A DNA stretch of 64,000 bases from Waterburya sp. (GTDB lineage: Bacteria; Cyanobacteriota; Cyanobacteriia; Cyanobacteriales; Xenococcaceae), in contig CBDCJV010000002.1 of NCBI GenBank assembly GCA_965217895.1, forward strand, positions 1,408,001 through 1,472,000, written 5' to 3'. Of this stretch, positions 25,914 through 56,175 are shown one piece after another; the first letter of the stretch is position 1; each line of letters opens with the position of its first letter. A program made the translations under genes and the position numbers. The notes beneath the pieces were generated by a model that worked only from the letters and a program-made list of their open reading frames with translations, did not search any database and had not been told where the DNA came from.

Positions 25914-26351
25914 GTGCCTCAAGTCACAGATTACTCCGCCCTAAACGGACGGAGCCTGCTGTGACCGTTGGTCAAAATATATGGATTACGAGAAAATATA
26001 AAGCCTAAGCGTTTTGCTTTATCTGATGCAATTCAGGCTGGGTTAACTGAAGCCATCGGCACACCAGAAACAAAAAGATTTCAGCGATTTATCATTCTAG
26101 AACCAGAAAACTTTATCTTTCCCAGCGATCGCACCAATGACTATACAATTATAGAAATTAGTATGTTCGATGGGCGTTCGGTAGAAAGCAAAAAAAACTT
26201 AATTCGTCTTCTCTATCAAAAAATATCTCAAACTGTTGAAATTAATCCTCAGGATTTAGAAATTACTATTTTTGAAACTCCAAAAGCCAACTGGGGAATT
26301 CGGGGAATATCAGGAGATGAACTAAATCTAAATTACAAGATAGATGTTTAA
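25914..26351 (+). pseudogene. Tautomerase-superfamily protein, 5' end interrupted by a 48-bp insert
   Basis: Without the insert reads GTG-PQVKIYGL..; insert adds in-frame TGA at 25962; DGRSVESKK and ETPKANWGIRG motifs. Confidence 0.8.
25923..25974 (+). mobile_element. 48-bp GTCA-bounded mini-element, copy 1
   Basis: GTCA at 25923 and 25971; 1 mismatch to the inverted copy at 56124-56175. Confidence 0.9.
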
Positions 26352-56123: not shown

Positions 56124-56175
56124 TGACCAACGGTCACAGCAGGCTCCGTTCGTTTAGGGCGGAGTAATCTGTGAC
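56124..56175 (-). mobile_element. 48-bp GTCA-bounded mini-element, copy 2
   Basis: Reverse complement of 25923-25974 with 1 mismatch. Confidence 0.9.

Follow-up and report, generated by a model that had tools for sequence, protein, structure and literature searches.

In the window, a stretch of 64,000 nucleotides from Waterburya sp., a tautomerase-superfamily gene is interrupted by a gene-less mobile hairpin element of 48 bp. The element belongs to a family with defined boundaries, a defined target, a conserved fold and an inner hairpin of the IS200/IS605 type, it inserts without target duplication, and at this locus it brings an in-frame stop. We consider it probable that the insertion is a knock-out by a hairpin that was moved in trans, as single-stranded DNA, by a Y1 (HUH) transposase. 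The family is beyond chance: it recurs in the genome, it folds, and the predicted empty site exists. The features are collected in Table 1; G000 denotes the genome that holds the window, and further G-, L- and X-numbers denote genomes, loci and sequencing runs, respectively.

Table 1. Features of the interrupted gene and of the inserted element (window positions)
Feature	Positions	Strand	Basis
Interrupted tautomerase-superfamily gene (two beta-alpha-beta type; close to Alr4568 and HI1388.1)	25914..26351	+	frame, Pfam, orthologs, PDB matches
Frame of 16 codons, starting at the native GTG and closed by the TGA of the element	25914..25964	+	frame reading
Gene-less mobile hairpin element, 48 bp	25923..25970	- (active strand inferred)	family copies, G023 empty allele, discordant filled/empty pairs
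Outer 7-bp stem (25923-25929 with 25959-25965), joining both ends	25923..25965	.	fold and covariation
Element-borne terminal TGAC, resembling but not being a target duplication	25923..25926	-	covaries with inner GTNN
Inner 21-nt imperfect hairpin, 8 pairs including T-G	25934..25954	-	matches IS200/IS605 right-end hairpins
CAGG, adjoining the inner hairpin on its 5' side, putative guide tetramer of the IS608 type	25955..25958	-	fits T-G-x-C, partial covariation
Possible TTG-started 127-aa frame without Pro-1 and Gln-2	25968..26351	+	GGAG 25951-25954 inside stem
Target tetramer TGAC (GTCA on +); element lies 3' of TGAC on the minus strand	25971..25974	-	empty sites
Second copy of the 48-bp element	56128..56175	+	one base different, intergenic

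The tautomerase frame matches Pfam Tautomerase_2 (PF14552, E=1.8e-25), and its body matches PDB entries 4LKB, 9C4L, 1MWW and 7TVK over the full length (E values of 1e-38 to 1e-25). The native start is a GTG at 25914-25916, and two GTCA tetramers (25923-25926 and 25971-25974) lie 48 bp apart. As the preliminary description had it, removal of these 48 bp gives V(M)-P-Q-V-K-I-Y-G, that is, M-P-Q-V-K-I-Y-G from the GTG start, in a frame that stays open up to the stop at 26351. The insert, itself in frame, carries a TGA (25962-25964), followed by a TTG (25968-25970) with a GGAG upstream (25951-25954), again as described; this GGAG is 13 nt away from the TTG and is paired in a predicted RNA stem. 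The in-frame TGA severs the Pro codon from the tautomerase body, so that the frame as it stands has no full-length chain with an N-terminal Pro-1, and what is read from the native start in this closed frame is a 16-residue peptide. A search of the insertion site found no terminator, and promoter-like matches were at chance level. The earlier suggestion had been that the gene is either killed or yields a Pro-less product; the former is likely. Restart at the TTG by re-initiation is possible, and its product would miss two residues that even Pro-less orthologs retain. Since this TTG is made up of fixed terminal bases found in every copy of the element, it is not evidence of design. The insertion is likely a plain knock-out of a dispensable gene, with a presumed loss of function. 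As the superfamily does include proteins without Pro-1 (346 of 11,395, described as uncharacterised in PMC5818174), the interrupted gene may have kept some residual function.

The tautomerase gene was present in 16 of the 41 genomes searched; within the genus, this query did not recover it from 10 of 24 genomes, some of which are incomplete. Among the 14 orthologs with a readable N terminus, nine start with M-P-Q, three with M-V-Q and one each with M-T-Q and M-L-Q; Pro-1 is thus replaced by V, T or L in five of them while the M-X-Q register is kept. The catalytic Pro-1 invoked in the preliminary description therefore stands for the majority but is not invariant. None of these 14 orthologs begins at the TTG position, and none holds the 48 bp. 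An exact empty allele, ATG CCT CAA GTC AAA ATA (M-P-Q-V-K), was found in genome G023, whose native ATG is a GTG in the window copy. Because this genome, with its exact empty site, differs from the window at only 4 of 56 codons (one silent and three not; about 2% diverged), the insertion is recent, in agreement with what had been proposed, and the same insertion was not seen in a second strain. The gene is broken by four other events in relatives: the G023 copy is split, the G019 copy is missing its 5' part, the G008 copy carries a stop-bearing insert and the G005 copy is frameshifted. The insert in the G008 ortholog (L012, about 1650-1690) is a different one, of 24 bp with two hairpins at a HIP1 site, and the G023 gene is split at this same HIP1 site. 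Judged from these alignments, the gene is dispensable in the group, in a lineage that is already losing it.

A two-end search of G000 returned 29 full-length copies of the element, 16 of 48 bp and 13 of 57 to 243 bp, the latter enlarged by nested hairpins; the copy length is divisible by three in 28 of the 29. Nine copies ride inside copies of a repeat of roughly 190 bp. Two element-free copies of that repeat were noted (G000:C2:3903510-3903680 and 3295740-3296080), one of which is an exact empty site, while the other is 2 bases shorter and may represent an imprecise loss. The second copy in the window has a small membrane-protein gene on one side and, downstream, a gene of 437 aa. With the full-length pattern, matches were obtained in 36 of 61 genomes of the bacterial family and in 3 of 301 genomes sampled from the phylum, of which one does not belong to the family; the reversed control had no match. 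The pattern of a 45-bp sister matched 31 of the 61, and sister subfamilies span 44 to 48 bp. Among the matches listed, the named holders are mostly Pleurocapsa, Hyella, Waterburya and Xenococcaceae-type records, and no RNA holder of the element is listed; a search of Rfam gave one chance-level match only (E=0.21). A head-to-tail dimer of the 45-bp sister (L240:1590-1690, G011:C694) fits insertion behind the element's own end. No orientation bias relative to flanking genes was found (23 versus 27). A lagging-strand bias is a feature of IS200/IS605-type elements; no replication-strand bias was seen here (11 of 20 independent copies), with the origin guessed from a weak GC skew. The literature searched, with the Nostoc SDR sequences outside the comparison, yielded no description of this 48-bp element.

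The insert had been presented as GTCA-bounded. Both tetramers are present but they are not duplicates, 25971-25974 being the target and 25923-25926 the element's own end. When 27 copies from four relatives were compared with G000, both flanks were located there for 13 of them and 14 could not be placed; the 13 sites comprised six with a clean single TGAC, five that were diverged and two that were filled. Among 37 further loci, two sites have unlike ends (L217/L226 and L229), and there a filled TAAC...TGAC corresponds to TAAC alone in G000; a third such site was diverged. Conversely, one copy in G000 reads TGAT on its left and TGAC on its right, and four of the five genomes searched show TGAT alone at this site, the fifth being without spanning sequence. 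Since the discordant ends differ at tetramer positions 2 and 4, the element must be pasted exactly 3' of the target together with its own TGAC. A target-site duplication was rejected, as the empty allele keeps one tetramer only at three discordant sites. Furthermore, the terminal TGAC covaries with the element's inner GTNN and not with the target. The context in 63 distinct flank pairs is Y-TGAC-T: the target is preceded by T or C in 60 and followed by T in 56, C in 5, A in 2 and G in none, hence by a pyrimidine in 61. The target rule is T-N-A-C on one strand, mostly TGAC, without duplication.

With regard to the fold, a 66-nt stretch folds better than all of 200 shuffles on either strand (z of -3.2 and -4.2). 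In 32 distinct aligned copies, chosen by us from 40, pairing in the two stems reaches 98.8%, two-sided changes number 26 as compared to 9.4 in shuffles, and slid controls pair at 50% or less, although the patterns used for collecting the copies already presuppose the stems and the covariation test is therefore partly circular. The T-G pair of the inner hairpin is kept on the minus-type strand in all 32 copies, and the closing pair of this hairpin is G-C in 24 and C-G in 8. In the outer stem, three of the seven pairs show changes on both sides, and one of the pairs is G-C in 17 copies and C-G in 15. A variant with a seemingly locally inverted guide region and two side-by-side hairpins was seen at L294 and at seven metagenome loci and occupies many sites.

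The inner hairpin shares 20 of 21 bases with the right-end hairpin of a tnpB element (L180: GAAT, hairpin, TCAA) and is close to that of an IS200 tnpA element (L183: GATA, hairpin, TCAT; NF033573, E=1e-39). Another gene-less repeat that ends in this hairpin, preceded by GAAT and followed by TCAA, occurs in a different cyanobacterial family (L186, L197, L198 and L206 in G120 and G139). Because the inner hairpin matches IS200/IS605 right ends, the 48-bp element likely moves like a single-hairpin PATE; from its sequence features it appears to behave like a peel-and-paste element, and we count it as a candidate PATE. Insertion 3' of a tetramer without duplication is the IS200/IS605 signature in the available text of PMC4810608. 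IS608 needs two hairpins on a dimer (PMC3201880), and Haloquadratum has 52-bp terminal-only PATEs with a single palindrome that may be mobile, according to the sections of PMC3119063 on these elements. The 48-bp element has one hairpin, and a two-ended derivation is without a parent in 55 metagenome loci and 182 element loci: no parent tnpA/tnpB element was found at any of the 55 metagenome right ends or the 182 element-holding loci, and the stretches listed from genome contigs (at least 102) and from hairpin searches of the order and genus contained minis only. Three copies that neighbour tnpA/tnpB (L194, L272 and L360) were considered as having their parents there and rejected, being insertions into or beside unrelated IS605 elements; the sister at L272:1501-1546 lies inside the left-end hairpin of a tnpB element, and that at L194:1485-1529 lies inside a tnpB coding sequence.

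The tetramer at the foot of the inner hairpin, CAGG, resembles a guide. In IS608-type guides, the fourth base pairs with target position 4. The first two guide bases cross-pair with cut-site positions 2 and 1, and purines are disfavoured after the cut (PMC3201880 and PMC5934647 for the former and PMC5934647 for the latter, in the portions available). By the cross-pairing rule, CAGG predicts T-G-x-C, and L180, L183 and the IS605 left end in L360 obey the rule too, the L360 element having the target TGAC and the guide CAAG. In the 45-bp sisters, C stands at target position 2 in 14 of 52 elements with G-first guides (8 genomes) as compared to 2 of 51 with C-first guides (Fisher p=0.002, which is overstated as kin are not independent). 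This tally was made by hand from 103 of 120 rows, after nine reverse reads of the 48-bp family, three odd variants and five other guides had been dropped. G-first guides are nevertheless still mostly on TGAC, with G at position 2 in 29 of 52. A CCGT variant in the guide position (5 of 150 family rows listed and 8 of 55 metagenome loci) breaks the IS608 rule and is still at T-N-A-C/T targets. The right-end tetramer varies under the same guide (TGAC, TCAC, GGAC, CGAC and GCAC), and the right ends GGAC, CGAC, GCAC and TCAC track the inner stem rather than the guide. Straight pairing of the inner GTNN was also tried as an aiming rule and rejected: at position 1, none of 20 GTCC/GTTC elements has the predicted G and all have T, and at position 2 the fit is weak, GTG-type elements with C-first guides being mostly on G.

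Our working model is that the minus strand would fold and that the transposase would bind the single hairpin and make two cuts, one behind the target tetramer and one behind the TGAC that the element carries. With its ends held together by the outer stem, the element could close as a 48-nt dumbbell circle and the donor could reseal exactly; a further T-N-A-C would then receive the circle on its 3' side. In the tautomerase gene the element was inserted 3' of the TGAC in codon 4, likely disabling a gene that was already in decay. A Y1 TnpA acting in trans is, on balance, the probable mover; in G000 it would have been supplied by an IS200/IS605 element that has since been lost. No full-score IS200/IS605 TnpA was found in G000, G020, G017, G003 or G043, of which G000 and G020 are complete. 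G023 and G019 hold TnpA (7 and 3 matches, respectively) and G000 keeps a tnpB-only element, without matching ends, for which reason a TnpA was plausibly present until recently.

The same knock-out could be the work of a different mover, in that a hairpin of IS200/IS605 descent is now moved by another enzyme, either a host protein or a divergent HUH protein. It would read the fold and the conserved AC/GT at the stem base, and is perhaps the mover of the cyanobacterial small dispersed repeats. An enzyme other than canonical TnpA is suggested by the finding that the genomes richest in the element are without TnpA: TnpA above the cut-off is absent in five of eight genomes with 8 or more copies as compared to 8 of the 53 others (p=0.008, confounded by clade), and over the 61 genomes the element count and the TnpA count have a Spearman coefficient of -0.01. 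Identical copies at lineage-specific sites in genomes without a full-score TnpA point the same way, as do the mobile variant that lacks a guide, the strict outer stem with C-GAA-G or C-AAC-G junction loops foreign to known IS608 ends, and the further small hairpins that nest within the element. However, no candidate for such an enzyme was found. The sole intact Y1-like gene in G000 (G000:C2:3519192-3521277, L323) is RAYT-like; its neighbour is a broken paralog, and its coding sequence contains a GTAG palindrome. A second RAYT in G000 is frameshifted (G000:C2:2354797-2355325, L046). The RAYT-like gene was rejected as the mobiliser: it comes with GTAG palindromes of its own, and its occurrence does not follow that of the element, the search having missed it in G023 and detected it in element-free genomes. 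Moreover, none of the RAYT-like genes inspected has the element beside it, those genes carrying other palindromes. The TnpA matches in G023 and G019, the tnpB-only element in G000 and the covariation of the first guide base with the target also speak against another enzyme, which we hold to be possible but distinctly the weaker proposal. Equally tentative is the idea that the 44- to 48-nt elements as a class might be self-closing single-hairpin DNA, in which one strand folds until its two ends meet and leaves as a dumbbell circle with a three-base loop, to be pasted at T-N-A-C by an enzyme other than canonical TnpA. A movement as double-stranded DNA, be it site-specific recombination with a short core (IS110 or tyrosine recombinase) or a DDE transposase that makes a 4-bp duplication, would account for TGAC on both sides at most filled sites and for a base preference on both sides of the cut. 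It is largely refuted by the discordant sites, where the empty allele follows one side in full and so leaves neither a shared core nor a duplication, by the absence of terminal inverted repeats and by the one-strand T-G pair in 32 of 32 copies, and we give it next to no credence. The ends of the 48-bp element are not inverted copies of one another and no transposase gene lies within it; with neither terminal inverted repeats nor target duplication, its identity as a (DDE) MITE was rejected.

The preliminary description had gone on to propose that precise excision makes the insertion a reversible switch, and one may extend this to a maintained on/off switch or to a useful Pro-less isoform made from the TTG. 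Clean removal does restore the gene exactly and the remainder of the tautomerase frame is still open; a ribosome ending at the TGA (25962-25964) would sit 3 nt from the TTG and could re-initiate, and Pro-less proteins are known both in the superfamily (the 346 of 11,395 given in the available text of PMC5818174) and in 5 of 14 orthologs. On the other hand, sequencing runs X1 and X2 (one sample, possibly the source) show the filled allele and no joint that skips the 48 bp, a weak check given that these are contigs and contigs drop rare variants. Other strains that span the site (X3 and X11) are empty, which leaves the site filled in one sample only; runs X6, X7 and X13 are without coverage of the tautomerase gene and X9 covers the gene body only. 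There is no mobilising TnpA in G000, the gene is irreversibly broken in four relatives, the native ATG is now a GTG, the GGAG is sequestered in addition to being 13 nt away, and natural Pro-less orthologs retain two residues that are absent from the TTG product. A maintained switch or useful isoform is thus very improbable, and the switch of the preliminary description is not supported. Reversion as such is possible, as exact excision is expected of such an element and slippage at the stem base, from one TGAC to the other, could also remove it, but on the hairpin-insertion reading that we favour, any excision would happen seldom and without regulation.

Taken by itself, the locus is an ordinary insertional knock-out, and the element matters more. 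One of the six frames of the 48-mer is free of stops, and five other G000 copies lie inside open frames of 390 to 715 codons (G000:C2:373970, 1689878, 3081722, 4466476 and 4759749; L400-L404), all in the stop-free frame and in the same orientation as the tautomerase copy. These copies are 48 to 144 bp long and add 16 to 48 residues. Three of the five open frames have Pfam domains downstream of the insert, and in two of the five the insert may precede the true start. The element thus shows a route to protein insertions, in which copies in open frames add residues, while the tautomerase copy met a closed frame. If the self-closing single-hairpin class is real, few mobile elements that follow a defined target rule would be as small, and the class would offer an entry to the long-open question of what moves the small repeats of cyanobacteria. 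With exact ends, a target rule and natural variants in hand, a short oligonucleotide assay can address whether a Y1 transposase makes do with a single hairpin or a different enzyme does the work.

As to known systems, the interrupted protein matches tautomerases like Alr4568 and HI1388.1 over the full length, and the window copy differs in being interrupted at codon 4. The Nostoc repeats SDR1-8 of Elhai et al. (2008) are reportedly mobile hairpins of 21 to 27 nt with a fixed target, nesting and in-frame insertions into genes. Compared by description only, the 48-bp element is like them in being a tiny cyanobacterial mobile hairpin, and it differs in being longer (48 nt as against 21 to 27 nt), in its IS200/IS605-type hairpin and in its TGAC target. 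With REP/REPIN-RAYT systems, as far as the available text of PMC8266576 and PMC3116915 describes them, it shares short palindromes, one hairpin for the 5' and 3' cuts and a target cut at C|T; unlike them, it has no GTAG motif, occurs as singlets rather than doublets and does not flank any of the RAYT-like genes inspected. The likeness to IS608 ends (PMC3201880 and PMC5934647, in the portions available) extends to insertion 3' of a tetramer, an element-borne right tetramer, a preference for a pyrimidine after the cut and an imperfect hairpin with a T-rich tip and a guide-like tetramer at its foot. The 48-bp element differs from these ends in using one hairpin for both ends, in its loose target position 2, in a right tetramer that is not fixed by the guide and in having one mobile variant that is guide-less. 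The terminal-only PATEs of Haloquadratum (HqIRS46 and ISHwa23 core deletions, 52 bp), as portrayed in the sections of PMC3119063 on them, are similar in being about 50 bp long with one IS605-type palindrome, in having no inverted repeats and no target duplication, and in their strain-specific insertions. Set against these PATEs, the element of the window is one for which no full-length parent was found, with an extra covarying outer stem round the hairpin, sister subfamilies of 44 to 48 bp and nested growth to 243 bp in steps of three.
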